From positions 1 through 47,454 of the forward strand of contig JAENWF010000164.1 in NCBI GenBank assembly GCA_016650215.1: a stretch of DNA of 47,454 nt. The letters run 5' to 3'. Positions 7,827 to 47,432 of the stretch are shown here, piece by piece. The notes below the pieces were generated by a model. The model did no database searches. It worked only from the letters and a program-made list of their open reading frames with translations, and was not told the origin of the DNA. The DNA comes from Thermoanaerobaculia bacterium. GTDB taxonomy: Bacteria; Acidobacteriota; Thermoanaerobaculia; Gp7-AA8. The position numbers and the translations under genes were made by a program. The first letter of the stretch is position 1. Each line of letters begins with the position of its first letter.

Positions 7827-8305
7827 GCGAGAAAGTCATCACGATCGGCGGCGAGCAGCACGAGCTGAACGTCGAGCGCGCCGGGGATGCCGTCCGCGCG
7901 GGCGAGTTGCTCGTCGAAATCGTCAGCGTGCGCGCCGAAGAGGCCGAGCTGCGGATCGCCGGGAAGACGTACATGGTTCCGTTCGCGTTCGAGGGAACGC
8001 GCATCCATTTCGCGTTCGACGGTGAGATCTACACCGCGGACGTGGCCGAGAAAGGCGCGAGAGTCCGGGCCAGGCACCGCGACCACTCGATGAGCGCGCC
8101 GATGCCCGGCGTCGTGCTGAAAATATTGGTTGCCCCGGGCGATGTTGTTTCGAAGGGAGCGCCGCTCGTGGTGCTCGAGGCGATGAAGATGGAGCACCAG
8201 ATTCACGCACCGCAGGACGGAAAAGTGACCGCGATCAACTGCCGGGAGGGAGAACTGGTGCAGCCTGGTCTCGATCTCGTGGAGCTGGCTCCGGTCGACG
8301 GTTAA
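7823..8305 (+). CDS. Biotin/lipoyl attachment domain protein (stand-alone biotin carboxyl carrier-like)
   Basis: The ATG at 7823 overlaps the pyrE stop (ATGA). The C-terminal domain carries the biotinylation motif LEAMKMEH. Confidence 0.8.
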   Translation: MSEKVITIGGEQHELNVERAGDAVRAGELLVEIVSVRAEEAELRIAGKTYMVPFAFEGTRIHFAFDGEIYTADVAEKGARVRARHRDHSMSAPMPGVVLKILVAPGDVVSKGAPLVVLEAMKMEHQIHAPQDGKVTAINCREGELVQPGLDLVELAPVDG

Positions 8306-8364
8306 CGATTACCGGTTAACGTCGTACTTATACACGACTGTTAACCGTTAACCGTTAACCGTTA
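8300..8364. repeat. GTTAACC heptamer array forming an imperfect hairpin
   Basis: GGTTAACGATTACCGGTTAACG, then a loop, then CTGTTAACCGTTAACCGTTAACCGTT. It includes the upstream stop codon and ends at the HMG-CoA lyase ATG. Confidence 0.85.
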
Positions 8365-9302
8365 TGAAAATCAGCGTCGATACGGTCAAGGTTGTTGAAG
8401 TCGGTCCGCGCGATGGCCTTCAGAACGAGAAGGTCACGATCCCGGCTCAGGTGAAGATCGACTACATCACCGCCCTCGGGGACGCAGGCCTGCGTGTGAT
8501 CGAAGCGGGTGCGTTCGTCAGCCCGAAGTGGGTCCCGCAGATGGCCGATACGGCCGAGGTCTATCGGAACATTCCGAAGGACCCCGGGATGGAGTATCCG
8601 GTGCTCGTCCCGAACATGAAGGGACTCGAGCTCGCGATCGATGCAGGGGTGAAGTCGATCGCGATCTTCACCGCGGCGTCGGAGACGTTCAACAAGCGCA
8701 ACATCAACATGACGATCGACGAGTCGTTCGAGAGCTACGCGCCGGTCGCGATTCGCGCGCGCGGCGAGGGGATGCGCGTTCGCGGCTACGTATCGACCGC
8801 ATTCGGCTGCCCGTACGACGGTGAAGTCGCGCCGGAGAAGGTGCTCGAAGTTTCCGCGCGCCTGCTCGATCTTGGCTGCTACGAGGTCTCGATCGGTGAC
8901 ACGATCGGCGTGGGAACGCCGATGCAGGTGCAGGGTGTGATCGGCATGCTGCTGCAGGTCATCCCGCCTTCGAAACTCGCGATGCATTTTCACGACACGC
9001 GAGGAATGGCGCTCGCGAACACACTCGCCGCGCTCGAGATGGGAATCGCGACGTTCGACGCGTCCGCCGGAGGCCTCGGCGGTTGCCCATTTGCGCCCGG
9101 TGCGTCGGGCAACATGGCGACCGAGGATCTCGTCTACCTGCTCGACGGGATGGCGATCGAGACCGGGGTCGATCTAAAAAAACTCGTGGCGGCGTCGTCG
9201 ATCATCGCGCCATATCTGAATCATCCGCTCCCAGGGCGCTATCTGCAGGCCTGCACGCGCACTGCGCTGCCCGTGGCCACGCAGACGACCGCGGTACAAT
9301 GA
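8364..9302 (+). CDS. Hydroxymethylglutaryl-CoA lyase
   Basis: Motifs VEVGPRDGLQNE, HFHDTRGMALAN and GLGGCPFAPGASGN are present. 312 aa. Confidence 0.9.
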   Translation: MKISVDTVKVVEVGPRDGLQNEKVTIPAQVKIDYITALGDAGLRVIEAGAFVSPKWVPQMADTAEVYRNIPKDPGMEYPVLVPNMKGLELAIDAGVKSIAIFTAASETFNKRNINMTIDESFESYAPVAIRARGEGMRVRGYVSTAFGCPYDGEVAPEKVLEVSARLLDLGCYEVSIGDTIGVGTPMQVQGVIGMLLQVIPPSKLAMHFHDTRGMALANTLAALEMGIATFDASAGGLGGCPFAPGASGNMATEDLVYLLDGMAIETGVDLKKLVAASSIIAPYLNHPLPGRYLQACTRTALPVATQTTAVQ

Positions 9303-9315
9303 GCTCACTCCATCG

Positions 9316-9759
9316 ATGAGTGAGCCGGCACAAGCCGTCAACGGCTGGAAGGGTGGTTGGTACGTGGTGCCGTACCGGGTCGCGTTCCGCGACATCGACG
9401 CCTTCGGCCACGTCAACAACGCGGTCTACCTGACGTACTTCGAGATTGCGCGCACCGATCTGTGGCTCCAGGTGGTCGGGGGTACCGGTTGGCGCGATGT
9501 CGGGTTCATCGTGGCGCGCGCCGAAATCGACTTCCGCCAACAGCTCGCGATGGAACCGATCGATATCTGCGTCCGCATCGGTGACATGAGAAACAGCTCG
9601 TTCGACTTTCTGTGCGAGGTCCGCCGCGACGCGAGCCGCGAGATTGCAGCGACAATGAAGGTCGTCGTCGTTTTCTTCGACTGGAAGACGAACGCGAAGA
9701 AGCCGATCAGCGATGCGATGCGGCAGAGGGTCGCATCGATGCAGGGGGGAGGGTCATGA
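9316..9759 (+). CDS. Acyl-CoA thioesterase, 4HBT/YbgC hotdog family
   Basis: VAFRDIDAFGHVNNAVYLTYFE is typical of hotdog thioesterases. 147 aa. Confidence 0.8.
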   Translation: MSEPAQAVNGWKGGWYVVPYRVAFRDIDAFGHVNNAVYLTYFEIARTDLWLQVVGGTGWRDVGFIVARAEIDFRQQLAMEPIDICVRIGDMRNSSFDFLCEVRRDASREIAATMKVVVVFFDWKTNAKKPISDAMRQRVASMQGGGS

Positions 9760-10616
9760 CGATGCATGATGGCCGGCTGTTCACGCATCCCACGCTCGCG
9801 AGGAAGCGATTCTGCGAGATCGCGGCGCGCCCCGAGCCGAGCCTCGATCTCGTCGAGGGCTCGCTCGTCATTGCGCTGGAAGAGGATCCGCGCCTCGACA
9901 TCGATCGCTATCTCACGCAGTTCGACGGATGGAGTGCGGCTGTCCGGCAGCGGCTCGAGGGCTCGCTCGATGTCGAGCGGATCGTCGAGTCCATCAATCG
10001 CATCCTCTTTGATGAAGAGGGGTTTCATGGCGAGGACGAGGACTATTACGACCCCCGCAGCGCCCTGCTGTCGGACACGCTGGATCGTCACGCCGGTCTT
10101 CCGATCACGCTCTCGATTCTCTACATCGAGATGTCGCGACGTGCGGGAGTCGAGGCGACCGGCGTCTCGCTGGCCGGACGATTTCTCGTGAAGTTCACCG
10201 GCGCGTTCGGCGAGATCGTCGTCGATCCTTTCGACGGCGGTCACGTGATGACGACTCCGGAGCTGCAGGCGATCCTCGACGCGATGTACGGAGGCGGTGT
10301 CCGTCTGCGCGAGCAACACCTGCGCGGGTTCACGCGCCGGCAGATTCTGGCGCGCGAACTTGCGCAACTGAAAGCGGCCTATCTGGCTCAACGTGATCTG
10401 ACCCGCGCGGCCGCATCTGTCGACCGGCTGCTGATTCTGGACGCGCGCGACGCGTCCGAGGTGCGCGACCGCGCGGCCCTTGCCGTGCAGATGCACGCCT
10501 ACGCGCAGGCGATCGAGTGTTTCGAGCGCTATCTGGAGCTGATGCCGCACGCCGAAGACCGTTCGCGCGTTCGCGAGCGGATCGCGTGGCTCAGCGCCTG
10601 GATGGATCAGAACTAA
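9756..10616 (+). CDS. SirB1-like transglutaminase-like/TPR protein
   Basis: Track ORF trimmed to the ATG at 9756, which overlaps the thioesterase stop (ATGA). The layout is N-terminal LDLVEGSLVIALEEDP, then LPITLSILYIEMSRRAG, then a C-terminal TPR-like helix pair. Confidence 0.65.
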   Translation: MTMHDGRLFTHPTLARKRFCEIAARPEPSLDLVEGSLVIALEEDPRLDIDRYLTQFDGWSAAVRQRLEGSLDVERIVESINRILFDEEGFHGEDEDYYDPRSALLSDTLDRHAGLPITLSILYIEMSRRAGVEATGVSLAGRFLVKFTGAFGEIVVDPFDGGHVMTTPELQAILDAMYGGGVRLREQHLRGFTRRQILARELAQLKAAYLAQRDLTRAAASVDRLLILDARDASEVRDRAALAVQMHAYAQAIECFERYLELMPHAEDRSRVRERIAWLSAWMDQN

Positions 10617-10668
10617 CACACTCTGTCTGATACACTTCGCGCGAGTTTTCGGCGGGGAGCGTAAGCCC

Positions 10669-11391
10669 GTGATCACGGGATTCAACACCGACATCCGGCA
10701 CAACGACAAGGTCTATCACATACAGACCGAAGATAAGGGTCTTCAGAACCCTTACATCGAGTCCCTCGTGTATGTCGGTGGTGAGATCCTCGCGTCGAAA
10801 AAGACCTCGTACGCGGAGCAGGCGAAGACAGGCGTCGACGAGAAGTGGATCGGCGGGCTGATGGAGCAGCAGCACCGCACGATGATCGCAGCCATCAAGC
10901 GCGGCCGGCTCGATCAGCCGGCCGATTCGACCAAGATGGCGATCAAGCCCGGCGGACCGACGGTCGCCGCTCCCGCTCCCGATATGACGAACGCGACGAC
11001 GGCCGGCTCGACTCCCGTTCCGACGAGCGACGAGAAGACGCTCGATCAGGTCATCAGCGACTATCTCGTATCAGAAGCCGATAGCGAGCACCTCGAGCTC
11101 TCGCTCCTGACGCAGGGCGAGTTCTTCGCGGGTGCTCCCGTCGAGCTGCGGGTCGCAACCAGGAGAAGTCTCTCGCAGAATCCGATCGCCGCCGCGTCGA
11201 TCGAGGTCAAAGTCATCTCGACTGTCGAACCGCCACGCGTGATCTTCCGCGGCAAGACCGCGGCCGACGGAACCGCTATGGTCCGCTGCACGATCCCGGC
11301 GTTCCGCGAAGGAACCGCCGCCGTCATCATCTCCGCGCAAAGCCCGATCGGGAACGATGAGGTCAAGCAGCTCGTCAAGCGAAAGAAGTGA
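10669..11391 (+). CDS. Hypothetical protein (conserved N-terminal FNTDIRH..VYHIQTEDKG module, Ala/Pro/Thr linker, beta-rich C-terminal domain)
   Basis: GTG start at 10669 with GGGGAG 9 nt upstream. Composition is coding-like. No family that I can name. Confidence 0.6.
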   Translation: MITGFNTDIRHNDKVYHIQTEDKGLQNPYIESLVYVGGEILASKKTSYAEQAKTGVDEKWIGGLMEQQHRTMIAAIKRGRLDQPADSTKMAIKPGGPTVAAPAPDMTNATTAGSTPVPTSDEKTLDQVISDYLVSEADSEHLELSLLTQGEFFAGAPVELRVATRRSLSQNPIAAASIEVKVISTVEPPRVIFRGKTAADGTAMVRCTIPAFREGTAAVIISAQSPIGNDEVKQLVKRKK

Positions 11392-11505
11392 CGAGTGACG
11401 CGTTACGCGTTACGCGTGACGAGTTGGGACCCGACTCGTTTCAGCGAGATTAGACAAGCACTTACCTCCTCGGCCGCTCGTCACGCGTCACGCGTCACGC
11501 GTTAC
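11388..11505. repeat. GTKACGM heptamer arrays as long-range inverted repeat, with an inner terminator-like hairpin
   Basis: The left arm GTGACGAGTGACGCGTTACGCGTTACGCGTGACGAG (11388-11423) is nearly complementary to CTCGTCACGCGTCACGCGTCACGCGTTAC (11477-11505). An inner hairpin CGAGTTGGGACCCGACTCG followed by TTT lies at about 11419-11441. Confidence 0.85.
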
Positions 11506-11544
11506 CCGTCTTAGTGCGGAATTACCCTTGCATAGTCGCCGAAT

Positions 11545-13956
11545 GTGATCCGATCCCGCGGACTGCGCGCGTTTCTGACTCTTGCCGGACTTGCTGGCCT
11601 CACCTACCTCTTGGCGAGCCTTTACCTTCCGTCTTCGCGGCGGTTGATCTTTGGCGTCGACAAGAGGAGCGGGAGCGTGCGGATGGTGCGGCAGAACGTG
11701 ACGTATCTGCCGCCGCATCGTTTCTACCGGCTCACGTTCGAGAAGCGCGACGGAGCGGCGCAGCGCGATGGTCTTGTGCGGATCGTGTCGAAGGAAGGCG
11801 TTCCGGTCACAATCAACTACCGTTTGCGTTTTGGCGTAGAGGGAAATCAGATCTCGGATTCGCGCCGCCTCGTGACTGACGGTTGGAACGGTTGGATTCG
11901 CGCGCGGGTCGGGGAGGCGGTGTCGGCGGTTACGAAGCAGGTTTCGATCGAGGAGCTGCTCTCGCCGAGCTCGCGGTTCAATCAACAGCGCGATCCGCTT
12001 CGCCGCGTCGTCGCGGCGCATCTCGCGCAGAGCGGATTGAAGGTCGCAGCGTTCGAAATCGCCCGCATCGAAGCCGACCGTGGCGCGCTCCTTCGCTACA
12101 AGCGCGCCGAGCTCCGGCGCGGTGCGCGCGGCGTCGCCGGCCGGGTGGCGGTCTTCGCGATCGACGGAGCCGATTGGGACTTGATTCAGGAGCTCGCGAA
12201 CGACGGGCGCATCCCAAACATCGCGGCGCTCGTGCGCAATGGCACGACGGCATCGCTTCAGACGATTCAACCGACCGTCTCGCCGCTGGTCTGGACGACG
12301 CTTGCGACAGGCGTCTCACCCGACCGTCACGGGGTCATCGATTTTCTCGCAGGCGTGGCGCCGGTCGACTCGAACACGCGCCGCTCTCCGGCCGTGTGGG
12401 AGATCGCGGAGGCATTCGGGCGTCCCGCGGTCGTCGGCAACTGGTGGACGGCCTGGCCTCCGATGGAGGGGGAGACGGTGGTCTTCGATACTCCCGTGCA
12501 GCTCCTGGACGATGCGATCTACCCGGCATCAGCCGCTCCCAGGATGCAGTCGGCCCTCGTTCCTGTCTCCACGATCGGATCCGAGCAGGTGCGGCGGTTT
12601 CTGAACATCACGGGCGCCGAGTACGACCAGGCTGTCGCCGCGAACAATCCGGCCGACCCGGTCAACATTTTCCGCGGCGTGCTCGCGAAGACGTGGACTG
12701 ATCACCGCACCGCGATGAACCTCTATCGCGACAAGGCGCCGCTGCTCCTCATGATGTCGTACGAGGGAACCGACGTCGCCAATCACCTCTTCGCGCCGTA
12801 CCACCCGCCTTACCGCGAGGGAATCAGCCAGGAGCAGTACCGCAAGTATTGGCCGACCGTCGCAAACTACTACTCCGAGATCGACCGTCTCATCGGCGAG
12901 TGGATGCAGGTGCTCAGCGAAGACACGACGGTGATGATCGTGTCGGCCCATGGATTCCGATGGGGCAAGCCGCGGCCGCGTGTGCAGCCGGTCGGGCGCG
13001 CGGCGCTTTCGGATCACCGGAATCCCGGCGTGTTCATCGCGTACGGAAATCACGTCGCGCCAAACCGTGGAAGCCACACGATCTCGATCTACGACCTCAC
13101 CCCAACCATCCTCGCAATCCTCGGGCTTCCCGCCTCGGGCGACATGCAGGGGACGGTAGCGCGGTGGGCCTTCAAGGACATCGCTCCGGTAGAGTCAGTC
13201 GGCGTTGTCAGCTACAGCGAGGTTCTCAGCGACCGGCCGTTGGCCGTGACTCAGCGCGTGAACGCGCAGATATATCAGCGCAATCTCCAGGCGATCGGAC
13301 ACATGCTCGACTTGGCGCAGAGCGCATTGCCGCAGCTCGATGAGCAGGAGAATCCCGCGGTGGCCGCGCAGCCGTTGCCCCCTGACCAGTGGGGCCTCTA
13401 CGCTTTTCGCAACAATCAAGGGATCGAACTTCGGAAGCAGGGAAAGACGCGCGAGGCAGTCGAGGCGTTCCAGAAAGCGATCGACATCAATCCGACGCGT
13501 CCCACGCCTTATCTCAACATGGCGATGACGCTCTTCGACCGGCAGCAGTACGCGGCGGCGGATGACGTGTTCATGCAGGCGGTGACGAAAGGACTCCCGA
13601 ACGCCGACCGCTGGTTCGTCGACTTTGCGTCGCTCTATCGCAGCAGGGACATGACGGCGCGCGCGATTTCGCTGCTCTTCAAAGGCAAAGAGATCTTCCC
13701 GCAGTCGTTCATCATCGCCGCGAATCTCGGCTCCGCACTCTCGCAAGCCGACCGATACGCGGAGGGACTCGGCGAGCTCGAGCGCGCTCTCAGCCTTCAG
13801 CCTTCGTCGACCACCGCGCTCAACAACCTCGCGACCGTCTACGCGAAAAAGAACGAGTACGCGCGCGCACTCGACTTCTGGAACCGATCGCTCGCGATCA
13901 ATCCCCGCCAGCCCGAGATCCGCGTCGCCGCGGAATCGGCGCAGACGCATCTTTAG
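11545..13956 (+). CDS. Membrane-anchored SPFH-like / alkaline-phosphatase-superfamily (nucleotide pyrophosphatase-phosphodiesterase type) / TPR fusion protein
   Basis: GTG start with an N-terminal TM segment (LTLAGLAGLTYLLASLYL), followed by a Band7-like segment. The AlkP core reads VAVFAIDGADWDLI...TIQPTVSPLVWTTLATGVSPDRHGV. The C-terminus has TPR repeats (AVEAFQKAIDINP, YARALDFWNRSLAINP). Confidence 0.8.
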   Translation: MIRSRGLRAFLTLAGLAGLTYLLASLYLPSSRRLIFGVDKRSGSVRMVRQNVTYLPPHRFYRLTFEKRDGAAQRDGLVRIVSKEGVPVTINYRLRFGVEGNQISDSRRLVTDGWNGWIRARVGEAVSAVTKQVSIEELLSPSSRFNQQRDPLRRVVAAHLAQSGLKVAAFEIARIEADRGALLRYKRAELRRGARGVAGRVAVFAIDGADWDLIQELANDGRIPNIAALVRNGTTASLQTIQPTVSPLVWTTLATGVSPDRHGVIDFLAGVAPVDSNTRRSPAVWEIAEAFGRPAVVGNWWTAWPPMEGETVVFDTPVQLLDDAIYPASAAPRMQSALVPVSTIGSEQVRRFLNITGAEYDQAVAANNPADPVNIFRGVLAKTWTDHRTAMNLYRDKAPLLLMMSYEGTDVANHLFAPYHPPYREGISQEQYRKYWPTVANYYSEIDRLIGEWMQVLSEDTTVMIVSAHGFRWGKPRPRVQPVGRAALSDHRNPGVFIAYGNHVAPNRGSHTISIYDLTPTILAILGLPASGDMQGTVARWAFKDIAPVESVGVVSYSEVLSDRPLAVTQRVNAQIYQRNLQAIGHMLDLAQSALPQLDEQENPAVAAQPLPPDQWGLYAFRNNQGIELRKQGKTREAVEAFQKAIDINPTRPTPYLNMAMTLFDRQQYAAADDVFMQAVTKGLPNADRWFVDFASLYRSRDMTARAISLLFKGKEIFPQSFIIAANLGSALSQADRYAEGLGELERALSLQPSSTTALNNLATVYAKKNEYARALDFWNRSLAINPRQPEIRVAAESAQTHL

Positions 13957-13957
13957 A

Positions 13958-14141
13958 CTGAGTGCTGAGTCTTGAGTGCTGAGTCCTGAGTCCTGAGACT
14001 GAGTCCTGAGCGGATCATCGCTCGTGGGCCTGTGTCATCCCGAGCGCAGCGAGGGATCCCCCGCGTCCGGGCCATCATCATCTTGGCGCGGGGATTCTTC
14101 GCTTCGCTCAGGATGCCATCGTCCTCTCAGCACTCAGCACT
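13958..14141. repeat. CTGAGTG/CTGAGTC heptamer array plus nested REP-like hairpin
   Basis: A heptamer array lies at 13958-14010. A REP hairpin pairs GTCATCCCGAGCGCAGCGAGGGATCCCCCGCG with CGCGGGGATTCTTCGCTTCGCTCAGGATG (14034-14115). The complementary CTCAGCACTCAGCACT lies at 14125-14141. Confidence 0.85.
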
Positions 14142-14208
14142 ATGGTGCGCCTTCGGTGACGGTTGACACTTGACGTGCACCCGGAGCCGAAATACCATTC
14201 CTTGTCTG

Positions 14209-14223
14209 GACTGAGACTCAGTC
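14209..14223. promoter_or_regulatory. Perfect 7-1-7 palindrome GACTGAG-A-CTCAGTC 21 nt upstream of fur (candidate operator)
   Basis: The palindrome is read directly from the sequence. Its position, between a TTGACA/TTGACG pair (14163-14176) and the fur ATG, is suggestive. It does not resemble the AT-rich canonical Fur box. Confidence 0.25.
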
Positions 14224-14243
14224 TCAACTAACAACGGACGGCA

Positions 14244-24902: not shown

Positions 24903-24931
24903 AAAAGCGCCGCCGAGGCCGGCGGCGCTTT
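24901..24931. terminator. Bidirectional intrinsic terminator
   Basis: AAAAAA-GCGCCGCCG-AGGC-CGGCGGCGC-TTT is a perfect 9-bp GC stem with a 4-nt loop, flanked by A and T runs. It lies between convergent genes. Confidence 0.85.
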
Positions 24932-25459: not shown

Positions 25460-25665
25460 GGGGTCAGGTCTTGAAATTTGCTTTTTGACGGTCAGGAAAA
25501 GCAAAAATCAAGACCTGACCCTGGCCTCTGTTGTTCTCCACGGGGTGTGGAAAAAACCACCTCGGAATGGAGAATCGGACGCGCAGAACTCTACCGGAAG
25601 GCGGGGTCAGGTCTTGATTTTTGCTTTTTCACAGTCGGGAAAAGCAAAAATCAAGACCTGACCCC
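25460..25665. repeat. Composite double-hairpin element, copy 2 (inverted relative to copy 1)
   Basis: Hairpins at 25460-25521 and 25603-25665 carry the same 22-nt arms as copy 1. The spacer matches the reverse complement of the copy 1 spacer (CTCCAC-n4/5-GTGGAAA and CAGAACT..CCG.AA blocks). Confidence 0.9.
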
Positions 25666-25668
25666 GTT

Positions 25669-28963: not shown

Positions 28964-29206
28964 ATGGCTCAAGACATTGAATCCATGCTCAAGGATTTGT
29001 TCGGCGAGCCGCTCAGCCGCCTGACACAGTTTCAGTCGGAACAGGTCAAGAAGCTCACCTCCAAGCTCCAGGAGATCGCGCGTGAGGCAGTCAAGGACGA
29101 GCTGACGAAGCTCCACACAGATGTTGGCGACCTCCGCGCGCGAATCGCAAGGCTGGAAGCCGAACGCGCCGAAGCCGCCGCTGACAGCGTGCAACCGCTC
29201 GTATAG
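28964..29206 (+). CDS. Small coiled-coil protein (80 aa), unknown function
   Basis: ATG at 28964 with GGAGG upstream. The sequence is heptad-like and charged (QSEQVKKLTSKLQEIAREAVKDELTKLHTDVGDLRARIARLEAERAEA). Confidence 0.5.
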   Translation: MAQDIESMLKDLFGEPLSRLTQFQSEQVKKLTSKLQEIAREAVKDELTKLHTDVGDLRARIARLEAERAEAAADSVQPLV

Positions 29207-29216
29207 GTCAGCGCGC

Positions 29217-29299
29217 TTCAACATTCAACATTCAAAATTCAACATTCCCGTCTTCTCTGTGACTTGAAGCGAAATGTTGAATGTTGAATGTTGAATTTC
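29217..29299. repeat. CAACATT heptamer arrays forming a ~30-bp-stem hairpin between convergent genes
   Basis: TTCAACATTCAACATTCAAAATTCAACATTC (29217-29247) is complementary to GAAATGTTGAATGTTGAATGTTGAATTTC (29271-29299). Confidence 0.9.
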
Positions 29300-29318
29300 C
29301 TCGAGTCCTCAGCCCTCG

Positions 29319-32300
29319 TCAGTACGCATACCCCAGCGTGATCGACCAGCTAAACGGGCGGTCGTATGCGCGGCGGTCGAGGGGGACGCCGACGTCGAGG
29401 CGGATCGGGCCGACGGGGGAGAGGTAGCGCAATCCGGCTCCCGCGCCGTAGCGGAGGTCGCCGAAGCGGATGTTCGATCCGGCGAAGACGTTTCCGAGGT
29501 CGGCAAAAACCGCGCCGCCAAGACTGCTGAAGATCGGGAAGCGATACTCCGCGTTGAAGAGAAACATGCTGTTGCCTCCGAGCGGTGCGAGGCGAAACTC
29601 GCCCGCTCTTTCATCGAGGTCGAACAGCGTCGGCTCGCAGCCGGGCACATCGATGCTGTTGTCGGCGCAGAGATCGCCGAGGAGATCGAGCGGATACGCG
29701 CGATGCGAAGTGTCACCGCCGGCGGTGAATCGCTCCGAGAGCGGGACCACCGCATCGCCTCGCGGCTGAATCAGGCCGACGCGTCCTGAGAGCGCGATGA
29801 CGCTGCGCGTGCTGACCGGCAGATACCACGCTCCCTGGATGAACTCCTTGAGGAAGTTCGCCTTCGCCGAGAACAGCGGGAACGCGTACTCGATCGACGC
29901 GCTCGTGAAGAAGCCGCGATGTGGATCGAAGACGTCATCGCGCTTGTCCCAGAAGAATGTGGGCGTGACGCTCGAGATCTGGATGTTGAGGAACGAGCGG
30001 TCCCCGCCCGGATCGATCCGGTCCTGCTGTTCGCAGAGATCGCCTTCGAGACACTCGGAGATCTTGTACTGGTACTGCAGGGACCAGCGCGTACGATTGC
30101 GTGCGACGCGTGACGCCTCGATCGACGTGCCGCGCTGCAGAAGCCTCGTCTCTTTTCGCGTCGCGTCATCGGTCTGATAGATCGTCAATTGCACCGGTAC
30201 GTTGTAGCGGCCGATGAACGGCTCGCGATACGTGATGAACAACTCCTGCTCCTTCACGCCGCCGGCTGTGCCGACGCCCTCGAGCCCGAGGTAACGACCA
30301 GTTCCGAAGAGATTGCGGTGCGCGACGCCCGCGGCGATGCGGTATGAAGCATCGCGCTTCCCCTGCTGCGATGTGCTTCCCGCGCGGAATCCGATCGACC
30401 CGCTGACCGTGAGGTTGCGACCTTCCTCGACGTCGATCGTGATGTTGCGGTCGGAGACGGATGTCCCCGCCTGCTCGGGGCGGAGATCCGCGCGGGCGAA
30501 GATGCCGAGGCGGTAAAGATCGCGCTGGGCCTCGAGAATCGCGGTGTAGCTGAACGGCTCGCCCTTCTCGAGTCCGACCTTCCGCAGAATGACATCGGAG
30601 TCGGTATATGTGTTCCCGCGGACGGAGACCTCGCCCACTTTCACCCGCGGCCCTTCGCTGATGACGTAGTGAAGGCGCGCCGACTTTTTGTCCTCACTCA
30701 GGTCGACTTGATGAGAGATGTTGACCTCGGCGTTGCCCCGGCCGGCGTAAAACGTCTGCAGCGCGATGATGTCCTCGCGCAGCATCACGGGATTGAGCGG
30801 CACGCCCTCCTCGAGCTGGAGTTTCGGAAGAGCAGACGTCTTCACCTGTTCGATACCCTCGACGTTCACCTGCGTGAGGATCGTCTGCGGCCCCTCCGTG
30901 ATGGGGAAGGTGACAACGAGCGTGCCATCCGGATTCGTTTTCGGAATGGGTGACGCGACCACGGCTTCGGAGAAGCCTTGCAGGCGGTAGTGCGATTCGA
31001 GCGCGTCGCGGTCTGCCGTCAACTGCGCGCGCGTGACACCGGTGCGACGGCGCAAAAGCGATGAAATGAGCCGCTTGATGCCGCCGCGGGGATTCGTCGC
31101 CACGATCGGTTCCAGCTCCTTGTCGCGAATTTGAAGATTGCCGTCGAACTCCACGTCTGTGAGCTGGAAGCGCTGGCCGGGTTGTACGTTGAAGGTCGTG
31201 ATCCAGGTACTCGTGCCGCTGTCGAGACGGCTTTCGGTATCGACCGATGCGTTGAAGTGTCCGCGTTGCTGAAGTGAGGTAACGATGTTCTCCGCGGCGC
31301 GGTCGATCGCGTCCTCGCTGTACTCCTGATCGCCGCGGAACGGGAGCAACCGGCGCACCGAGCTTCGCGAAACGCCGGCGACATCGACTCGGACTTTCGG
31401 CCCGACGGTCGCGCGATAGCGGAGCGTGACCTGCTTCGAATTCTTGTCATAGGTGTGCCCGAGGAATTCGACATCGGCGCGACGATACGACTTGCTCGCG
31501 AGATAGTTCTGAATGCGATCGGCATCGCCTCTCGGCTCGGTGCTCTTGAACGTCCGGCCGGGCTTTCCGCGCACCCGTTTGAGCAGCTCCACCTCAGTGA
31601 AGGGAGTCAGGTCGCCTTCGATTTCGACTGTTGAGATCTTCGCGAGCGGACCTTGCTCGACGTGGAGAGTGATGTTCGCGAGATTGTCCGCGCGACGGAA
31701 TGAGGTTTCGGGATCGACAGTGGCCTCGAGATACCCTGCTTTTCGCAGTTCTTCCTGAATCGCGACTGCGCTGTCATCGACGGCGTTGAGCGAGAGGACC
31801 TCTCCGCGCCGCACGGTCGCCTTTCGTTCAGCCCGCCGCTTGCTCGATCCGGTGACCCCCGCGTACGCGATCTTGTCGATACGGTAGTTGAGCGAGAGCG
31901 TGAAGGTGACGATCGAGTCGCCGTTCCCGCTCGCGGTGGAATCGATGCGGATGTCGCGGAAGTTTCCTGTCGCGTGTAACGCCTTGACGGATTCCTGCAG
32001 CGCGCGTCGCGTCAGCATGTCACCCGTCTTGAACGTCACGTGTTCGGCCAGCACCGACGTGTCGAAGCCACCATCGGCGCGGAAACGAACTTCGCCGACG
32101 CGTGAGCCGGCAGGGACGGGCGCGACCGCGGTTGTCGCAGGTGCGGGAATGGCGTCGGCGGGCGCGACGGCATCCGCGATCTTCCCGAGCGCGAAAATCT
32201 CGTCGTTGCGACTTCCGCGTCCGCCCCACGTCCATCGTCCGTCATAGCGCCGGCGGAAGCGCGCGTCGACCCGGTACTCGTTCTGCTCGCCGTCGTGAGT

Positions 32301-35300
32301 GAGCTGCAGCGTCCAGTCGCGGGTCGCGAGCCATTCGATCACCTCGCGGCTGTCGTGGCTCGTCATGTTGTACACGACGAGCACGCGGACGTCATCGGAT
32401 ACGCGCTTCTCGAATGTGACCTTCGGCTGGGGACCGGAGGCGGTCGTATCGAGGAGGCCGGGGTCATATGTGAACGAGTCGGCGAACGGGAGGATTCTCG
32501 ATCCGAGCTGTGAGAAGAGACTCTGCATGATGAAGGACTGGCCGAGCAGACCCGCGCTCTGATTCGTTCCCTCGCCTTGCCGCGCCAGCCCGCCGAGGCC
32601 GAGAATCGAGAAGAGCGTGATGTCGCTCGCCGGCGGGTCGCTTGTGATCGACGGCGTGAGGTGCTCGATCGTGCCGGTGAGATTGATCGTGAGATCGACC
32701 GTTCCGCTTTCGAGCTCGGTGGAGATGCCGCCCGACACGCGTCCTTCGAGCGTGACGTCGAAGTACGGGTCGATGCGGAACGGGTTCTGAAAGTTGATGG
32801 TGCCGCGGACGAGACGGTAGTCGATGTTCTGGAACGTGACCGTGCCGCCTTCGTCGAGATCGACCGATCCGAGAATGACTGGATTCGCGAGCGTGCCGGT
32901 GAGGTCGAGATCGGCGGTTCCGGTCACCTTGGCAATGTTGTTCTCCACGGCGAGCGTGCCGGGGGCCGCGAGGTGGACGCGAAGGTCCACGCGGTCCTGC
33001 CATCCGGCCGGCACGATCGGTGTGATGCCGCGGCGCGACAGAATGATGTTGAGTACCGACTGCTGCAGATCGAAGTCCTTGAAGTAGAGCGCGCGTGTGA
33101 CGTCCACGTCGCCCTGCAGCGTCGCCCGCTCCAGATCGCCGTTGAGGAGCAGATTGAAGTTGCCCTCGACGGTGACGCCCTCGAAGTAGCGAAGCGTGAC
33201 GTCGGTCCCTTGCAGTGTGATGCGAGCGCGCTGCGGCTTGAATCCCTGGACCGCGATGAAGCCGCCGGCGACCACGGTCCCGCCGCCGAGCGTCGCTCGC
33301 ATCGAGTCTATGTCGATCCGGTCGCCGCGGAAGGTCAGCCGTCCGTTGATGTCGTCCAGGATCTGCGGGAAGCCGGCGAATCGCACCTGCGCGTTCTCAA
33401 GATCCGCCTTGCCGGTGATGACCGGCGCGTCGGTTGTGCCGCGTGCCGTGACTGCTACCTTGACGTGCCCGCTCGCGCGTGCGTCGGTGACGAATAGCTG
33501 AAGCAGGGCTGCCTCGATTCCGCCTTGAACATCGAGGTTCAATCGCTTGGCACCGGTGAGCTCCATGAAGCCGGTCACCGCGAAACCTCCATCGGCGTGT
33601 CGCAGTTCGAACGCGTCGAACGTGACTCGTCCGTTACGGAGACCGATTCGAAGCGGCTCGCGCGGCGAAAACTCGTGACCCGAAACGCTGAGGTTGAATA
33701 CCGGCACCGTCGCGTCGATGAGGAGTGCCTCAAACGGCGAGAGTTTGCCTCCGAGACGAAGATCCATGACGAGATTTCCGGAAGCGGGGATCGTCGCAGC
33801 TGCGGGTGAGAGCGCGATGACGCGCGCGATGTCGGCGATCGTGACCTTCACGAGTCCGTCGACCGCAAGCTCAGGACCGACAGCCCCTTCGCCTTCGATG
33901 GTGACGATGTCGGCAATCGAGCCGCGGACGATCAGGCGGCCATTGCGGATCGCGAGATAGATGGATGGCGGCGGCGTGCCGGCCGGAAGCGTGAGGCCGC
34001 GCAGCGTCGCTTCATTGAGCTTCGCCTCCAGTACCAGTTCGGGGTCGTCGAGCGATCCGGCGCCCGTCGAGCTGAGCGTGACATTGCCGCCGAGAAGTCC
34101 GCGGATTCCCTCGAGCAGCTTCAGCTTCGAGAGATCGATCGAGCTTGATGCAATCGTGTAACTGAAGCGGTCGGTCGCGAGGTCGAACTCGGCCTCGCCC
34201 TTGATCTCGCCGGCCGGGAACCTGACTGCGACGTTCGTCGCGCGCATCCGCCCTTCCGTGAACGCGATGTCCGCGGCCGCGGAGTCGATCGGCTCGCCGT
34301 AGATCGATCCATTCGCGATTGCGATCGAGCCCGCGCCGCCGAGCGCGCTCTTGGGGCCTTCCAGGTGGAGTGATCCGGTCAGATCGCCGTTAACGGGAAG
34401 CGTGCCGAGGTCGAGGAACGCAATGATGTCGGCGATCGGGAAAGCGCGCGCATCGATGTCGAGGTCGAAGCGAACGTTGCCTTCGCCGGGCAACCAGTTC
34501 ACATCGCCGGCGAGCTTGAGCTGCGACGTGCCGCGGTTGATCGTCAGTCCCGCAAACGTGACGCGGCCCGACTCGGGCGTGCCGGTGACGACGAGACGTC
34601 CAGTGCCCGTTCCGCCGCCGACCACGAAGTCGAGACCGACCGCCTTGATCGCGCGATCAACCGGATAGTTCGTCGCGTCCACCGCGATGTCGAAACGGGG
34701 CGACGGACCGCGATCGGGGAAGGCGACGGTCCCCGTCAGCGCGAGACGGCCTGCGCCATCGGTGAAGACTGCGCGATCAAACGTCAGCGTGCTGCGGGGT
34801 CCGTCGTAGCGGAGATCGATGTCGGCGCCGCCGAGAAGGATGTTGTTGTACTTCGTGCCGTTGCCGCTGACGTGCGCTGCGACCACCGGTGCTTCGATCG
34901 GTCCGCGAACGGTGCCGCTGATCTCGCCCGAACCGCCGAGACCGAGGAGCTCGAAGTCCTTCTTGCCTGCGGAGCGCGCGAAGTTGTAGGCAAGACGGTC
35001 GAGCTCCGAGAAATCGCGGCTCGCGATCCGCATGCTCAGATCGGTGACGGTTCCTTCGATGCGAAGCGTGCCGGTCAGGCTGACGTGCGAGGTGTCGGTG
35101 TCGAGCTCCGCGCTGCGGAACGTCACCACTCCGCGATCGAGACCGAAGCGTGTCGTGCCCGCGAGCGGGATCGGGTACTTCGCGTTCGAGAATGCGACGG
35201 TGTTCCTCGCGAGCCGCGCGTTGCCTTCTCCTGACCCATCGAGGATCTTGTCCTTGTTCCAGCGATAGGTGAGGTCGCCGGTCGCTGCACCGCGCAGCCC

Positions 35301-36527
35301 GGTGTTGTCGACACCCCAATCCTTGAAGAGCTGTTCGATTGAGATCCGGTCGTAGCGAAGCTCGACATTCATCGGGTACGGCTCGGCGTACTTCGTCAGC
35401 ACGTAGTCCGCGTTGATCGTGCCGCCGCCGTAGACCGCGCGCTCGACGTCGATGAGCGCGCGGCTGCCATTCACGTCGAGTTTGCCTCGCGCGTCGGAGA
35501 GCTCGTACGTGTCGGCGACGATGTTCGGACTGCGCCATCCGCCGGTGAGACGGAAGTCGCCCTGGCGGCCGCGAAGATTCGTGTCGAGCGCAATCTCTCC
35601 TTCGAGCGTCTGCTGTACTCGAAAGATCTCTTTGATCCTTTCGAGCCCCATGCGTGATGTCACGCGCAGGTCGTACACTCCGTCTGTGAGCGGTTCGAGC
35701 TTGCCGGAGACGAATGCTTCGATTCCTTTTCCGCGGAGCGCGATCGAGTTCAACGCGAGCCTGCCGGGCGTGTAACGGAAGCCTCCGCGCATGTCGAGAT
35801 CGAACGGAACGTAGTCCTGGAGTGTGACGCGCAGCCGCGGACTCGTCATCAGGCCCGCATAGAGATTGTCAGCGCGCGTGACGTTGATCTGCGAGTTGAT
35901 ACCAATCGCCTCGGCCGTGACTTTGTGGCGGCGATCGAGAAACAGCAGCGTGCCGCTCTGCACAAACATCTGGCCGAGCTCCAGCCGCACGATCTCGTAC
36001 TTGCTGCGCGGTCCCGACTTCCATCGCGGAAAGTTGTGGATGAGCGGCGCGCCTTCCGGATACACCTCGAAGTTCAGGCGCGATCCGATGATATCGACGC
36101 GGCCGACTTTGATCTGCCGCCGCCAGAACGATTCGACGCCGCCGGTGATCACGACCTGCTGCACCGTAGCGAAGTGCGGATTCACTGCGCCGGGTGCGTT
36201 CGCGATACGGAGGTCGTTGAGGATCACTCGCTGCGGACGGCCGCGCGGAATCTCCACGCTCCTGATCGTCACGTCGCGGCCGAGCCGAGCCTCGAGCGTT
36301 TTCTCGACGCGCAGGCGAACGAGGTCGGCAAAGTTCGCGCTGCCGAGATACCACCACCCGCCGCCGATCACGAAGAAGAGCAGCAGGCCCCCGCCGATGA
36401 AGAGAAACATCATCGTGCGGAGGCAACCCCACATGGGTCCTCTGCGCTGGCGTTCGCGCGCGGAGCGGTGATGCCCCGTCTCGCTCGGGAACAGCGTGTG
36501 GCTGTCGTCTGGTGGTTGCTGATCCAT
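29319..36527 (-). CDS. Giant envelope protein: TamB/AsmA-like N-terminal ~1428 aa fused in frame to a ~7-POTRA Omp85 (BamA/TamA-family) beta-barrel
   Basis: Uninterrupted 2402-aa ORF. The N-terminal signal anchor reads TMMFLFIGGGLLLFFVIGGGWWYL. A long beta-rich G/T/L-repeat region follows, ending in a DUF490-like tail (KVTFEKRVSDDVRVLVVYNM...WTLQLTHDGEQNEYRVDARFRRRY). Next come an Ala/Pro linker and about seven ~80-aa POTRA-like units. The C-terminal ~366-aa barrel carries RFTAGGDTSHRAY (position of the Omp85 loop-6 motif) and the terminal ...ITLGYAY. Confidence 0.85.
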   Translation of the reverse strand: MDQQPPDDSHTLFPSETGHHRSARERQRRGPMWGCLRTMMFLFIGGGLLLFFVIGGGWWYLGSANFADLVRLRVEKTLEARLGRDVTIRSVEIPRGRPQRVILNDLRIANAPGAVNPHFATVQQVVITGGVESFWRRQIKVGRVDIIGSRLNFEVYPEGAPLIHNFPRWKSGPRSKYEIVRLELGQMFVQSGTLLFLDRRHKVTAEAIGINSQINVTRADNLYAGLMTSPRLRVTLQDYVPFDLDMRGGFRYTPGRLALNSIALRGKGIEAFVSGKLEPLTDGVYDLRVTSRMGLERIKEIFRVQQTLEGEIALDTNLRGRQGDFRLTGGWRSPNIVADTYELSDARGKLDVNGSRALIDVERAVYGGGTINADYVLTKYAEPYPMNVELRYDRISIEQLFKDWGVDNTGLRGAATGDLTYRWNKDKILDGSGEGNARLARNTVAFSNAKYPIPLAGTTRFGLDRGVVTFRSAELDTDTSHVSLTGTLRIEGTVTDLSMRIASRDFSELDRLAYNFARSAGKKDFELLGLGGSGEISGTVRGPIEAPVVAAHVSGNGTKYNNILLGGADIDLRYDGPRSTLTFDRAVFTDGAGRLALTGTVAFPDRGPSPRFDIAVDATNYPVDRAIKAVGLDFVVGGGTGTGRLVVTGTPESGRVTFAGLTINRGTSQLKLAGDVNWLPGEGNVRFDLDIDARAFPIADIIAFLDLGTLPVNGDLTGSLHLEGPKSALGGAGSIAIANGSIYGEPIDSAAADIAFTEGRMRATNVAVRFPAGEIKGEAEFDLATDRFSYTIASSSIDLSKLKLLEGIRGLLGGNVTLSSTGAGSLDDPELVLEAKLNEATLRGLTLPAGTPPPSIYLAIRNGRLIVRGSIADIVTIEGEGAVGPELAVDGLVKVTIADIARVIALSPAAATIPASGNLVMDLRLGGKLSPFEALLIDATVPVFNLSVSGHEFSPREPLRIGLRNGRVTFDAFELRHADGGFAVTGFMELTGAKRLNLDVQGGIEAALLQLFVTDARASGHVKVAVTARGTTDAPVITGKADLENAQVRFAGFPQILDDINGRLTFRGDRIDIDSMRATLGGGTVVAGGFIAVQGFKPQRARITLQGTDVTLRYFEGVTVEGNFNLLLNGDLERATLQGDVDVTRALYFKDFDLQQSVLNIILSRRGITPIVPAGWQDRVDLRVHLAAPGTLAVENNIAKVTGTADLDLTGTLANPVILGSVDLDEGGTVTFQNIDYRLVRGTINFQNPFRIDPYFDVTLEGRVSGGISTELESGTVDLTINLTGTIEHLTPSITSDPPASDITLFSILGLGGLARQGEGTNQSAGLLGQSFIMQSLFSQLGSRILPFADSFTYDPGLLDTTASGPQPKVTFEKRVSDDVRVLVVYNMTSHDSREVIEWLATRDWTLQLTHDGEQNEYRVDARFRRRYDGRWTWGGRGSRNDEIFALGKIADAVAPADAIPAPATTAVAPVPAGSRVGEVRFRADGGFDTSVLAEHVTFKTGDMLTRRALQESVKALHATGNFRDIRIDSTASGNGDSIVTFTLSLNYRIDKIAYAGVTGSSKRRAERKATVRRGEVLSLNAVDDSAVAIQEELRKAGYLEATVDPETSFRRADNLANITLHVEQGPLAKISTVEIEGDLTPFTEVELLKRVRGKPGRTFKSTEPRGDADRIQNYLASKSYRRADVEFLGHTYDKNSKQVTLRYRATVGPKVRVDVAGVSRSSVRRLLPFRGDQEYSEDAIDRAAENIVTSLQQRGHFNASVDTESRLDSGTSTWITTFNVQPGQRFQLTDVEFDGNLQIRDKELEPIVATNPRGGIKRLISSLLRRRTGVTRAQLTADRDALESHYRLQGFSEAVVASPIPKTNPDGTLVVTFPITEGPQTILTQVNVEGIEQVKTSALPKLQLEEGVPLNPVMLREDIIALQTFYAGRGNAEVNISHQVDLSEDKKSARLHYVISEGPRVKVGEVSVRGNTYTDSDVILRKVGLEKGEPFSYTAILEAQRDLYRLGIFARADLRPEQAGTSVSDRNITIDVEEGRNLTVSGSIGFRAGSTSQQGKRDASYRIAAGVAHRNLFGTGRYLGLEGVGTAGGVKEQELFITYREPFIGRYNVPVQLTIYQTDDATRKETRLLQRGTSIEASRVARNRTRWSLQYQYKISECLEGDLCEQQDRIDPGGDRSFLNIQISSVTPTFFWDKRDDVFDPHRGFFTSASIEYAFPLFSAKANFLKEFIQGAWYLPVSTRSVIALSGRVGLIQPRGDAVVPLSERFTAGGDTSHRAYPLDLLGDLCADNSIDVPGCEPTLFDLDERAGEFRLAPLGGNSMFLFNAEYRFPIFSSLGGAVFADLGNVFAGSNIRFGDLRYGAGAGLRYLSPVGPIRLDVGVPLDRRAYDRPFSWSITLGYAY

Positions 36528-39351: not shown

Positions 39352-39399
39352 GGTCAATATCTTGACATATTTTGGCGGGGAGCGGCCAGAGGTCAGAGA

Positions 39400-39426
39400 C
39401 CAGTGGTCACTGGCCACTGGCCACTG
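39400..39426. repeat. CCAGTGG/CCACTGG heptamer array (self-complementary)
   Basis: CCAGTGG TCACTGG CCACTGG CCACTG lies directly downstream of the eno stop and upstream of the marR start. Confidence 0.8.
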
Positions 39427-39428: not shown

Positions 39429-40790
<1,362 letters not shown>

Positions 40791-40794
40791 ATTG

Positions 40795-41259
40795 TTACTT
40801 CCGACCCTCGGTCGGCAAGCCGAGCGCAACCCACTCGTTCCATCCGCCGATGAGTGCGGCGGCGTTGGTGTTGCCGCGCGATTTCATCTGCAGGACTGCT
40901 CGCGCCGCGGTGTGCTCTTCGACGCAGGCGCAGTAGGTGATCGCCATCTTGCCGGGAGGAACCTCGCGCATGCGGGAGGGGAGCTGGCTTCCGGGGATGC
41001 TGACAGCACCCTTGATGTGCTTCCGGTTGAACGAGTCGAGCGAGCGGACATCGACGAAGACAGCCTTGTTCGCGGCGACGAGCTTCAACGCTTCGTCGCG
41101 CTTGATCCGTTTCGCCGAGGCGAGAGCCTGCTCCTCCGCGCTGACGGGGGAGATCTTGATGTTGGGGTTGTTGGTCTGAGAAGGCATCATGACCTTCTGA
41201 GCGCCGGCGACGGCGGCGGTGATGGTGAAGGCGATAGCCAACGCGAGAGTCTTACGCAT
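40795..41259 (-). CDS. Exported rhodanese-like domain protein
   Basis: Signal peptide MRKTLALAIAFTITAAVAGA is present. The rhodanese-like core reads FVDVRSLDSFNRKHIKGAVSIP...ITYCACVEEHTAARA...GGWNEW. Confidence 0.8.
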   Translation of the reverse strand: MRKTLALAIAFTITAAVAGAQKVMMPSQTNNPNIKISPVSAEEQALASAKRIKRDEALKLVAANKAVFVDVRSLDSFNRKHIKGAVSIPGSQLPSRMREVPPGKMAITYCACVEEHTAARAVLQMKSRGNTNAAALIGGWNEWVALGLPTEGRK

Positions 41260-41313
41260 GAAAAAAGGTCCTCCTGAGGAAGTTGCAAAGGTCGAACAGG
41301 GCTGGCCGCGGAT

Positions 41314-43542: not shown

Positions 43543-43544
43543 AC

Positions 43545-46547: not shown

Positions 46548-46582
46548 GGTCGGCTTGTTTTACGGACCGTGGTCCCGAAGGT

Positions 46583-47257
46583 TCACGCGCGGTCGCCGCG
46601 GCGGTTGACGATCGACATGAACTCCTGGCGCGTCCGATCGTCCGAGAGGAAGTTGCCGCGCAGGACGTTCGTCTCCATGAATGACGACTCCTGCTCGACA
46701 CCGCGCATCACCATGCAGAGATGCACGCCGCCCATCCAGACAGCGATTCCCTTCGGCTCGACGATCTTCTCGATCGTGTCGGCGATGTCGTGTGCCAGGT
46801 GCTCCTGCGACTGAAGACGGCGCATGTGTACCTCGACGATGCGCGGGATCTTCGACGCGCCGATGATCGTCCTCTCCGGGATGTAGCCGATGATGAACTG
46901 TCCGAAGAACGGCAGGATGTGATGCGCACAAAGCGTCTTGTAGGTCCCGCCGATCACCACGAGGTTCTGGCAGTTCTCATCCGCCGCCGTGCACGCCTTT
47001 CGAAAAAGCGTCGTCAGTTTCTTGACGTCTGTGTAGTCGTACCCGCTCGTCATCGTGACGAGCGACTCGGCCCAGCGCCGCGGAGTGTCGACGACCGCCT
47101 CGTCCTCGAGATTCACGTGAAGAAGCCGAAGAACCTCACGCAAATGCTCCTGCAGTTTCTCCCGGTCCACGGATGGGCGGGGACTGGTGAGAAGTCCGCG
47201 GTCGTAGACCAGCGCCTCCATCTCGGTCTGAGCGATCTGGACGTCGGGGGTTTTCAT
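46583..47257 (-). CDS. folE: GTP cyclohydrolase I (FolE type 1)
   Basis: CAHHILPFFG and GGVHLCMVMRGV are present. 224 aa. Confidence 0.92.
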   Translation of the reverse strand: MKTPDVQIAQTEMEALVYDRGLLTSPRPSVDREKLQEHLREVLRLLHVNLEDEAVVDTPRRWAESLVTMTSGYDYTDVKKLTTLFRKACTAADENCQNLVVIGGTYKTLCAHHILPFFGQFIIGYIPERTIIGASKIPRIVEVHMRRLQSQEHLAHDIADTIEKIVEPKGIAVWMGGVHLCMVMRGVEQESSFMETNVLRGNFLSDDRTRQEFMSIVNRRGDRA

Positions 47258-47287
47258 GGGCGAAGTGTAGACGAGGACTGCCGGAAG

Positions 47288-47432
47288 GACTGAGTGCTGA
47301 GTGCTGAGGACTGAAGTGCTGAGTGCTGAGTGCTGAGTGCTGAGGACTGAGTCATTCCGAGCGCAAGCGAGGAATCCGGGTGGTGGAGCGTTTCCCCTCC
47401 CGCCCGGATTCCTCGCTTTCGCTCGGAATGAC
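47288..47432. repeat. CTGAGTG/CTGAGGA heptamer array directly abutting a REP-like hairpin
   Basis: The heptamer array lies at 47288-47353. The hairpin pairs GTCATTCCGAGCGCAAGCGAGGAATCCGGG with CCCGGATTCCTCGCTTTCGCTCGGAATGAC (47351-47432). Confidence 0.85.

Follow-up and report, generated by a model that had tools for sequence, protein, structure and literature searches.

What are the tandem runs of seven-nucleotide units that lie between the genes of contig JAENWF010000164.1 from a Thermoanaerobaculia bacterium (GenBank assembly GCA_016650215.1)? The stretch analysed here, referred to as the window, is the entire contig of 47,454 nt, ending at 47454, and such period-7 arrays occur in it at seven loci (A1 to A7, Table 1). 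We suggest that they are probably heptanucleotide palindromes of the short tandemly repeated repetitive (STRR) type, that is, short intergenic families in which the arms are reverse-complement tandem runs of one 7-nt unit. As a class of element, such arrays are already described. Bacterial heptamer repeats have been on record for 35 years, yet no origin or function is accepted for them.

Period-7 arrays between the genes of the window

Tandem Repeats Finder, run on the window, detected a period-7 array at each of the seven loci that the first-pass annotation had listed. They consist of head-to-tail 7-nt units forming ten arms, with 2.3 to 8.9 copies per arm. Our own scan, with a threshold of at least three near-perfect copies, gave eight arrays at period 7 in the window and none at periods 5, 6 and 8 to 15; in second-order Markov shuffles (n=50) the expectation at period 7 was 0.0 and no array appeared at any period of 6 or more. 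The period-7 excess, for which the first-pass annotation had proposed a scan of this kind, is thus present in the window. All seven loci are intergenic on a gene map built from third-position GC content (GC3) and Pfam, and of the 12 co-directional spacers that measure 25 nt or more, six hold arrays, as does the terminal stretch upstream of folE. The elements are therefore real, specific to period 7 and intergenic. A comparison of the window with Rfam at the gathering threshold returned no match.

The very high density of seven loci in 47 kb, in an uncultured, GC-rich soil acidobacterium, is an estimate from a single contig; besides the window, the period scans covered relatives (about 190 kb) and other loci (about 0.9 Mb). 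The host has a GC content of 63%. For two of its proteins, enolase and a phosphodiesterase-TPR protein of 803 aa, the closest homologues come from metagenome-assembled genomes (MAGs) labelled Thermoanaerobaculia (Acidobacteriota). The sequence of the window is present in permafrost-soil metagenome runs and was found in no RNA run.

Repeats break the assembly graph, and in a MAG built from short reads such arrays could be artefacts: there are Logan contigs that stop within A6 and A2, and the contig of the window ends beside A7. However, independently built Logan contigs (about 8x, with variants collapsed) match A1 and A5 in full and the arms of A2, A4 and A6 exactly, and one of them spans A1 with no differences, so the arrays are not produced by the assembly. 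The same architecture is moreover found in many unrelated assemblies, complete genomes included, which makes an artefactual origin scarcely credible.

The arrays usually start at the upstream stop codon or not more than about 20 nt from it. The earlier claim that they directly follow stop codons holds for five to six of the seven loci, with the stop contained in the first unit at 8303 and at 11389 and placed 0 to 20 nt ahead of the others, but not for A7, placed about 30 nt upstream of folE. A1 and A6 sit within apparent operons and extend to the next start codon. Near A4 there is a possible unannotated ORF of 80 codons with a coiled-coil-like sequence (28964-29206, plus strand), ending 11 nt before the CAACATT arm. 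Since this ORF would face the TamB-Omp85 gene, the spacer of A4 would be convergent.

Fold prediction agrees with the description of most arrays as two complementary arms, as five loci fold into long hairpins with z-scores from -4.0 to -7.5. The heptamer stems are imperfect, of about 20 to 40 bp, with loops of 10 to 55 nt. That complementarity is kept between the arms, as was also claimed, could not be upheld: the arms are not mirror copies, and the unit variants of one arm are uncompensated in the other, leaving a 1x1 mismatch roughly each 7 nt in A2 and A6. The number of copies and the unit variants are not the same from arm to arm or from relative to relative. The unmirrored variants fit independent slippage in each arm better than copying from one arm to the other. 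The generative mechanism proposed by the first-pass annotation survives in part, slippage being plausible but incomplete as an explanation and template switching being without evidence; mirror copying between arms by template switching was rejected on the unmirrored variants of A2 and A6. The 3' arm of A6 has at 40772 one unit of 8 nt (GCCACTCAG), and the extra base is missing in most of the other metagenome contigs with this array. This unit fits a recent single-base insertion into a heptamer array.

Hairpins that start at or just past stop codons recall Rho-independent or bidirectional terminators, the repetitive stem being then incidental. A3 and A5 each separate the end of one gene from the conserved operator-like palindrome of the next, and in some lower-GC Acidobacteriota (e.g. 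L024, L029, L019) an A-tract and a T-tract flank hairpins of the CTGAGTS unit (S being G or C). However, no U-tract follows any hairpin of the window, and downstream of 30 CTGAGTS hairpins T is only modestly enriched (3.7 vs 2.5 expected per 12 nt). A bias towards the sense strand is likewise absent (n=12 hairpins). The stems, at 27 to 40 bp, are far beyond those of terminators (about 5 to 14 bp), A1 and A6 reach the next start inside apparent operons, and A7 is in a 5' region. The genome has in addition a canonical bidirectional intrinsic terminator (Table 1), from which it follows that this organism does use terminators with A- and U-tracts. As the first-pass annotation had argued from their repetitive stems, these are not ordinary intrinsic terminators; a canonical terminator role for the heptamer hairpins is unlikely, and little credit can be given to terminators with incidentally repetitive stems as an explanation of the arrays.

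Table 1. Heptamer arrays A1 to A7 of the window and the canonical terminator
Feature	Position	Arms and interior	Setting	Predicted fold	Method
A1 hairpin	8300-8364	5' GGTTAAC-type 8300-8321; 3' (GTTAACC)3.6 8340-8364	From stop of biotinyl-carrier-like gene to HMG-CoA-lyase ATG 8364; upstream TAA 8303-8305 within first GGTTAAC unit, last unit reaches downstream ATG	8303-8366: -22.7 kcal/mol, z -4.0	Tandem Repeats Finder, fold, Pfam
A2 hairpin	11387-11510	5' arm 11387-11424, (GTGACGM/GTTACGC)5.4; loop about 55 nt; 3' arm 11479-11510, (GCGTCAC)4.6	TGA stop of upstream gene (11389-11391) inside first unit	11386-11512: -66.1 kcal/mol, z -7.5	Tandem Repeats Finder, fold
A3 hairpin	13958-14141	5' arm 13958-14010, (CTGAGTS)7.7; short 3' arm 14126-14141, (SACTCAG)2.3; arms enclose an unrelated repetitive extragenic palindromic (REP)-like palindrome (GTCATCCCGAGCGCAGCGAGGGATCC..., about 14034-14112)	2 nt past TAG stop	13950-14150: -102 kcal/mol, z -6.0	Tandem Repeats Finder, fold
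A4 hairpin	29217-29296	29217-29247, (CAACATT)4.4; then 29273-29296, (AATGTTG)3.4	20 nt beyond stop of minus-strand 2402-aa TamB-Omp85 gene	29210-29305: -35 kcal/mol, z -5.1	Tandem Repeats Finder, fold
A5 array	39400-39426	(CCAGTGG/CCACTGG)3.9, self-complementary, short	4 nt past enolase stop; upstream of conserved marR operator-like palindrome	Weak hairpin, z -2.1	Tandem Repeats Finder, fold
A6 hairpin	40717-40790	40717-40748, (CTGAGTS)4.6; loop 10 nt; 40759-40790, (SACTCAG)4.4	Rhodanese-to-enolase spacer, 10 nt past stop to 13 nt before start	40708-40797, minus strand: -47 kcal/mol, z -5.8	Tandem Repeats Finder, fold
A7 array	47290-47437	(CTGAGTG)8.9 at 47290-47352, abutting REP-like palindrome 47351-47437, GTCATTCCGAGCGCAAGCGAGGAATCC...GGATTCCTCGCTTTCGCTCGGAATGAC	folE start about 30 nt downstream		Tandem Repeats Finder
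Canonical bidirectional intrinsic terminator	24903-24931	AAAAGCGCCGCCGAGGCCGGCGGCGCTTT, A-tract/stem/U-tract	Between convergent genes		

The window being the whole contig, any partner arm of A7 would be unassembled.

Turnover of the arrays at orthologous sites

The arrays turn over much faster than the genes that flank them. A close relative (L001) has 91 to 94% nucleotide identity with the window over the covered region, yet it has neither A5 nor A6. The alignment breaks precisely at A6, in place of which L001 holds only CCGAGTTCACTCGG, a palindrome of one unit (CCGAGT-TC-ACTCGG), and at A5 nothing is alignable. At the site of A1 the genes of the nearer relative L208 overlap (ATGA), with no spacer at all, and in L209, which is farther, a (GTTAGCC)n..(GGCTAAC)n hairpin stands there (6580-6676). 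Its 5' arm, (GTTAGCC)n, enters the 3' end of the biotinyl-carrier-like gene, where it codes for the last five residues and supplies the TAA. Upstream of the enolase gene, farther relatives have (AAAGGCG)n/(CGCCTTT)n, (ACGACCC)4 or period-8 (AGTTGCCG)n/(GGCAACTC)n arrays; in others of them the site holds a REP-like palindrome or plain GC hairpins, or it is empty. Upstream of folE the relatives have a hexamer-armed hairpin, a plain hairpin of 18 bp or nothing.

Hairpins with hexamer arms, (GTGCCC)n/(GGGCAC)n and (NGGGCT)n/(AGCCCN)n, and with the octamer arms (AGTTGCCG)n/(GGCAACTC)n were observed at about 5700-5800 of L124, 9925-9995 of L125 and 12405-12520 of L209. As such arms stand at sites where other relatives have heptamer hairpins, the register is not strictly bound to 7 nt.

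Operator-like palindromes (GACTGAGACTCAGTCTCAACTA and TGTCAAGATATTGACC) are placed at about 14209-14230 upstream of fur and at about 39352-39372 upstream of marR. They are kept in relatives at 69 to 87% protein identity, whereas the adjoining heptamer hairpins are not. The orthologous sites offer a natural series (no spacer, a one-unit palindrome, four to nine units per arm, changing units) which could serve to work out the origin of the arrays.

Alternatively, the arrays might be multi-site platforms for a protein or RNA that reads a 7-nt register, as in heptad operators, with the hairpin potential being incidental. Three units of 7 nt make two turns of B-DNA, and position 7 of CTGAGTS is freely G or C, uncompensated in the other arm, much like a 6-nt site with a spacer. 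However, at least five unrelated units occur in this one 47-kb contig and dozens in the relatives, so that no single binder could read them all. Hairpins with period-6 and period-8 arms are found at the same sites in relatives, and the arrays are lost without trace in L001. A binding platform is therefore very unlikely.

If the elements are STRR-type palindromes, as we propose, replication slippage of the 7-nt unit would lengthen and shorten their arms, and new copies may form on the spot, out of short palindromes or the ends of genes, as well as by spread of existing families. In the transcript, the predicted fold is an imperfect stem of 20 to 40 bp beginning at the stop codon, which might act as a barrier at the 3' end or as a processing site of the RNase III type, and stems reaching from stop to start (A1, A6) would couple translation of the downstream gene to that of the upstream gene. 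With 7 being no multiple of 3, any arm with a stop triplet halts translation within three units whatever the frame, and for this reason slippage beside a gene end would be harmless. We are inclined to regard the elements mostly as tolerated DNA, selfish-like or neutral, and not as conserved regulatory signals. In genome annotation, such hairpins should not be labelled terminators or small RNAs by default.

Recurrence, polarity and relation to described repeats

The first-pass annotation assigned to each locus a heptamer of its own. This has to be corrected, as the CTGAGTS unit is common to three of the seven loci (A3, A6 and A7), and CTGAGTS, CAACATT and GTGACGC arms are found at other loci of the source metagenome. 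The same arm units recur at different loci with different loops. Arms of GTGACGC and CAACATT occur with other loops and flanks on metagenome contigs of depth 4 to 10, compared with 6 to 8 for the host genome, the contigs being matched by depth only and not assigned to that genome. Summed over contigs, the depth goes up from about 6 to reach 40-72 at the arms of A2 and about 1400 at the CAACATT arm. At several of the CAACATT loci the order of the arms is opposite to that of A4, the TGA-bearing AATGTTG arm coming first. The CTGAGTS arms recur on other contigs of the same metagenome, the GTTAACC arms on one other contig, and CCAGTGG (A5) is unique there. Among the relatives, L208 has a (GTTAACC)3..(GGTTAAC)4 hairpin at a site other than that of the GTTAACC element of the window, and two loci of one relative contig (L209 6591-6674 and L003 12910-12978) are identical in both arms and in a loop of 15 nt.

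The distribution of CTGAGTS was surveyed with four-unit arrays in one genome per prokaryote species. At least 119 stretches carry such arrays, in Nostocales, several classes of Acidobacteriota, Chloroflexota, Gemmatimonadota, Planctomycetota and others, and complete genomes are included. Among the matches listed, the remaining arrays of the loci selected in this way are nearly all of period 7 and of diverse units, and the cyanobacterial loci hold 71 arrays at period 7 compared with 10 or fewer at any other period. Again among the matches listed, an inverted partner within 300 nt was found for 41 of 61 arrays (67%) in Acidobacteriota and for 23 of 117 (20%) in cyanobacteria, with a reversed-unit control of about 0, and the hairpins have the polarity 5'-(CTGAGTS)n..loop..(SACTCAG)n-3' in 30 pairs vs two reversed ones. 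One of these two has a gene between its arrays. The polarity is independent of the direction of transcription, because the palindrome is identical on both strands.

The two arms also differ in their stop triplets. The (CTGAGTG)n arm contains TGA and the (CACTCAG)n arm contains no stop triplet; hairpins with a stop triplet only in the 5' arm outnumber those with one only in the 3' arm by 40 to 1 for CTGAGTS and by 8 to 1 for other units, the single exception among the latter being A4. As a tentative rule, the stop triplet favours the 5' arm. A general rule of purine-rich 5' arms was also considered and rejected, as it is true for arms associated with PF05635 genes and false for the Thermoanaerobaculia hairpins.

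The heptanucleotide STRRs of heterocystous cyanobacteria were reportedly described by Mazel et al. in 1990. In filamentous cyanobacteria (Nostoc, Anabaena) they form hairpins between genes such as hupS and hupL, and effects on transcript stability, translational coupling or termination have been proposed for them (PMC2670836). Like the window, STRR genomes have several 7-nt families each, strictly intergenic, often hairpin-forming and variable among relatives (PMC2670836, PMC4692102), and the CTGAGTS unit of the window is also arrayed in Nostoc, Calothrix, Anabaena and Nodularia. The host of the window is however a GC-rich member of Thermoanaerobaculia and not a heterocystous cyanobacterium, for which reason we call the elements STRR-like and not STRR sensu stricto. 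Inverted pairing is moreover the rule in Acidobacteriota and the exception in cyanobacteria, on the above counts among the matches listed. A literature search found no report of heptamer repeats in Acidobacteriota.

Heptamers are described outside the cyanobacteria as well. Mrazek, Guo and Shah (Mrazek 2007), as far as their work is represented in PMC4679880 and PMC4692102, found that in many bacterial genomes no long simple-sequence repeats are as over-represented as heptanucleotides, and suggested polymerase slippage. The Xanthomonas heptamers (Rehm et al. 2015, PMC4692102) include inverted pairs of arrays and vary extensively between close species. To the extent covered by these sources, the window shares with both the intergenic excess of period 7, the variation at the same sites, some inverted pairs and slippage as the proposed generator (PMC4692102). 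The GGGAATC/GGGGATT arrays of Xanthomonas and Nostoc (PMC4692102) differ in that Xanthomonas has one G-rich unit with G-quadruplex potential, whereas the window has many units without such potential that form duplex hairpins. The TAACTGA repeats of marine Beggiatoaceae (MacGregor 2015, PMC4679880), with 169 sets and one indirect repeat only, are likewise intergenic heptamers with a patchy spread across phyla, lie near translation signals and have stop triplets in the unit (PMC4679880). Unlike the arrays of the window, they are nearly all direct, placed just upstream of start codons and made of a single unit (PMC4679880). With STRRs (PMC2670836), the inverted pairs of Xanthomonas (PMC4692102) and the heptanucleotides of Mrazek 2007, the last as represented in the papers just named, already on record, the idea that the arrays form an undescribed class of element does not stand.

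The REP sequences and their paired form, REPINs, are also dispersed short intergenic palindromes, often past stop codons and in nested or paired arrangements, and REPs can stabilise the upstream mRNA. They are however fixed, non-periodic sequences of 20 to 40 nt that go with a REP-associated tyrosine transposase (RAYT), in contrast to the heptamer arms of variable copy number and the unconserved loops of the window. The intervening sequences of 23S rRNA and the stand-alone PF05635 cassettes have in common with the window a long stem made from inverted flanks. The window has neither a PF05635 gene nor rRNA, and the same is true of its relatives.

This last likeness leads to a further explanation, in which the hairpins, or at least the CTGAGTS family of A3, A6 and A7, are gene-less copies, like MITEs (miniature inverted-repeat transposable elements), of a small insertion cassette which, when complete, has between the same inverted heptamer arms a gene for the PF05635 protein ('23S rRNA intervening-sequence protein', an Avd-like four-helix bundle). 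In a contig of Phycisphaerae (L057 1638-2151) a PF05635 gene (E 1e-30) lies between (CTGAGTG)4 and (CACTCAG)n, and in a Nostoc contig (L074 6224-6620) one (E 5e-36) lies between (GGAGTCA)n and (TGACTCC)n. The ORF of the latter runs into the 3' arm, and its TGA stop is supplied by the array. Around 80 metagenomic relatives of the gene, a period-7 array was present in 44 of 146 gene-flanking windows of 140 nt vs 24 of 1250 windows at a distance of over 300 nt, other periods being nearly absent; in this metagenome sample PF05635 genes are thus flanked by inverted heptamer arrays at 16 times the background. The 5' arms that flank the gene are purine-rich and Shine-Dalgarno-like, and the same arm units are also found without a gene elsewhere on those contigs. 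The polarity of CTGAGTS, fixed across phyla in 30 vs 2 pairs among the matches listed, is moreover what common descent would lead one to expect.

The association of PF05635 with heptamers is real. Nevertheless no homologue was found in the window or in the approximately 190 kb of Thermoanaerobaculia relatives (best tblastn E 0.69, a motif scan being also negative), and loops of 10 to 55 nt are too short for the remnant of a gene. A comparison of A6 with L001 gave no target-site duplication and no direct repeat at the boundaries of A6, and the interiors differ among copies that share arms, which is not the result expected of MITEs. The one-unit palindrome of L001 suits growth or collapse in place, and the array of L209 that overlaps the end of a host gene points likewise to change in place. 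The association may equally run the reverse way, with PF05635 genes and REP-like palindromes landing in the loops of existing hairpins, to which the REP-like cores nested in A3 and A7 point. We consider descent from such a cassette rather unlikely. A literature search for PF05635 in combination with tandem repeats found no paper.

A broader proposal would join cyanobacterial STRRs, the hairpins with heptamer arms in Acidobacteriota, Chloroflexota, Planctomycetota and Gemmatimonadota and the arms of stand-alone PF05635 genes into one pan-bacterial class of palindromes, made or spread by a dedicated mechanism. Such a mechanism would account for a register kept strictly at 7 nt, for the polarity of CTGAGTS being fixed across phyla and for the any-frame stop triplet in the arm that follows an ORF. 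We hold this to be improbable.

Several points weigh against the reading of the elements as STRR-type palindromes shaped by slippage. The roles suggested for them at the RNA level are deduced from sequence and predicted folds, and a test of strand asymmetry through G-U pairs found no difference between sense and antisense folds (n=12 hairpins), so that selection on the transcribed strand is not in evidence. Why the period should be 7 rather than 4, 5 or 8 is left unexplained by slippage, as is a CTGAGTS polarity that is fixed across phyla (30 vs 2 among the matches listed). The bias of the stop triplet is inverted in the hairpins that bear PF05635 (2 vs 9), and outside CTGAGTS its count rests on few independent units (8 vs 1). 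The arm polarity of CTGAGTS, the bias of the stop triplet to the 5' arm and the 16-fold enrichment of heptamers beside PF05635 are possible handles on the origin and function of these repeats.

Other palindromes and a large ORF

The REP-like palindromes form a family (GTCATYCCGAGCGNAGCGAGGRATCC ... GGATYCCTCGC..CGCTCGGRATGAC) with copies at 14034-14112 and 47351-47437 of the window and, in relatives, at about 1990-2060 of L002, 9880-9985 of L124 and 11285-11320 of L127. Both copies of the window lie inside or against CTGAGTS arms (A3, A7), and in the relatives the family occupies spacers that hold heptamer hairpins in the window.

A second family of palindromes, non-heptameric and with arms of 22 bp (GGGGTCAGGTCTTGATTTTTGC...GCAAAAATCAAGACCTGACCCC), has three copies in two spacers of the window (2434-2495, about 2576-2623 and 25600-25668).

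The ORF of 2402 aa on the minus strand (29319-36527), whose stop is near A4, has relatives whose products combine DUF748/TamB, POTRA and Omp85 domains in one protein. Its synteny is kept in all the relatives compared.

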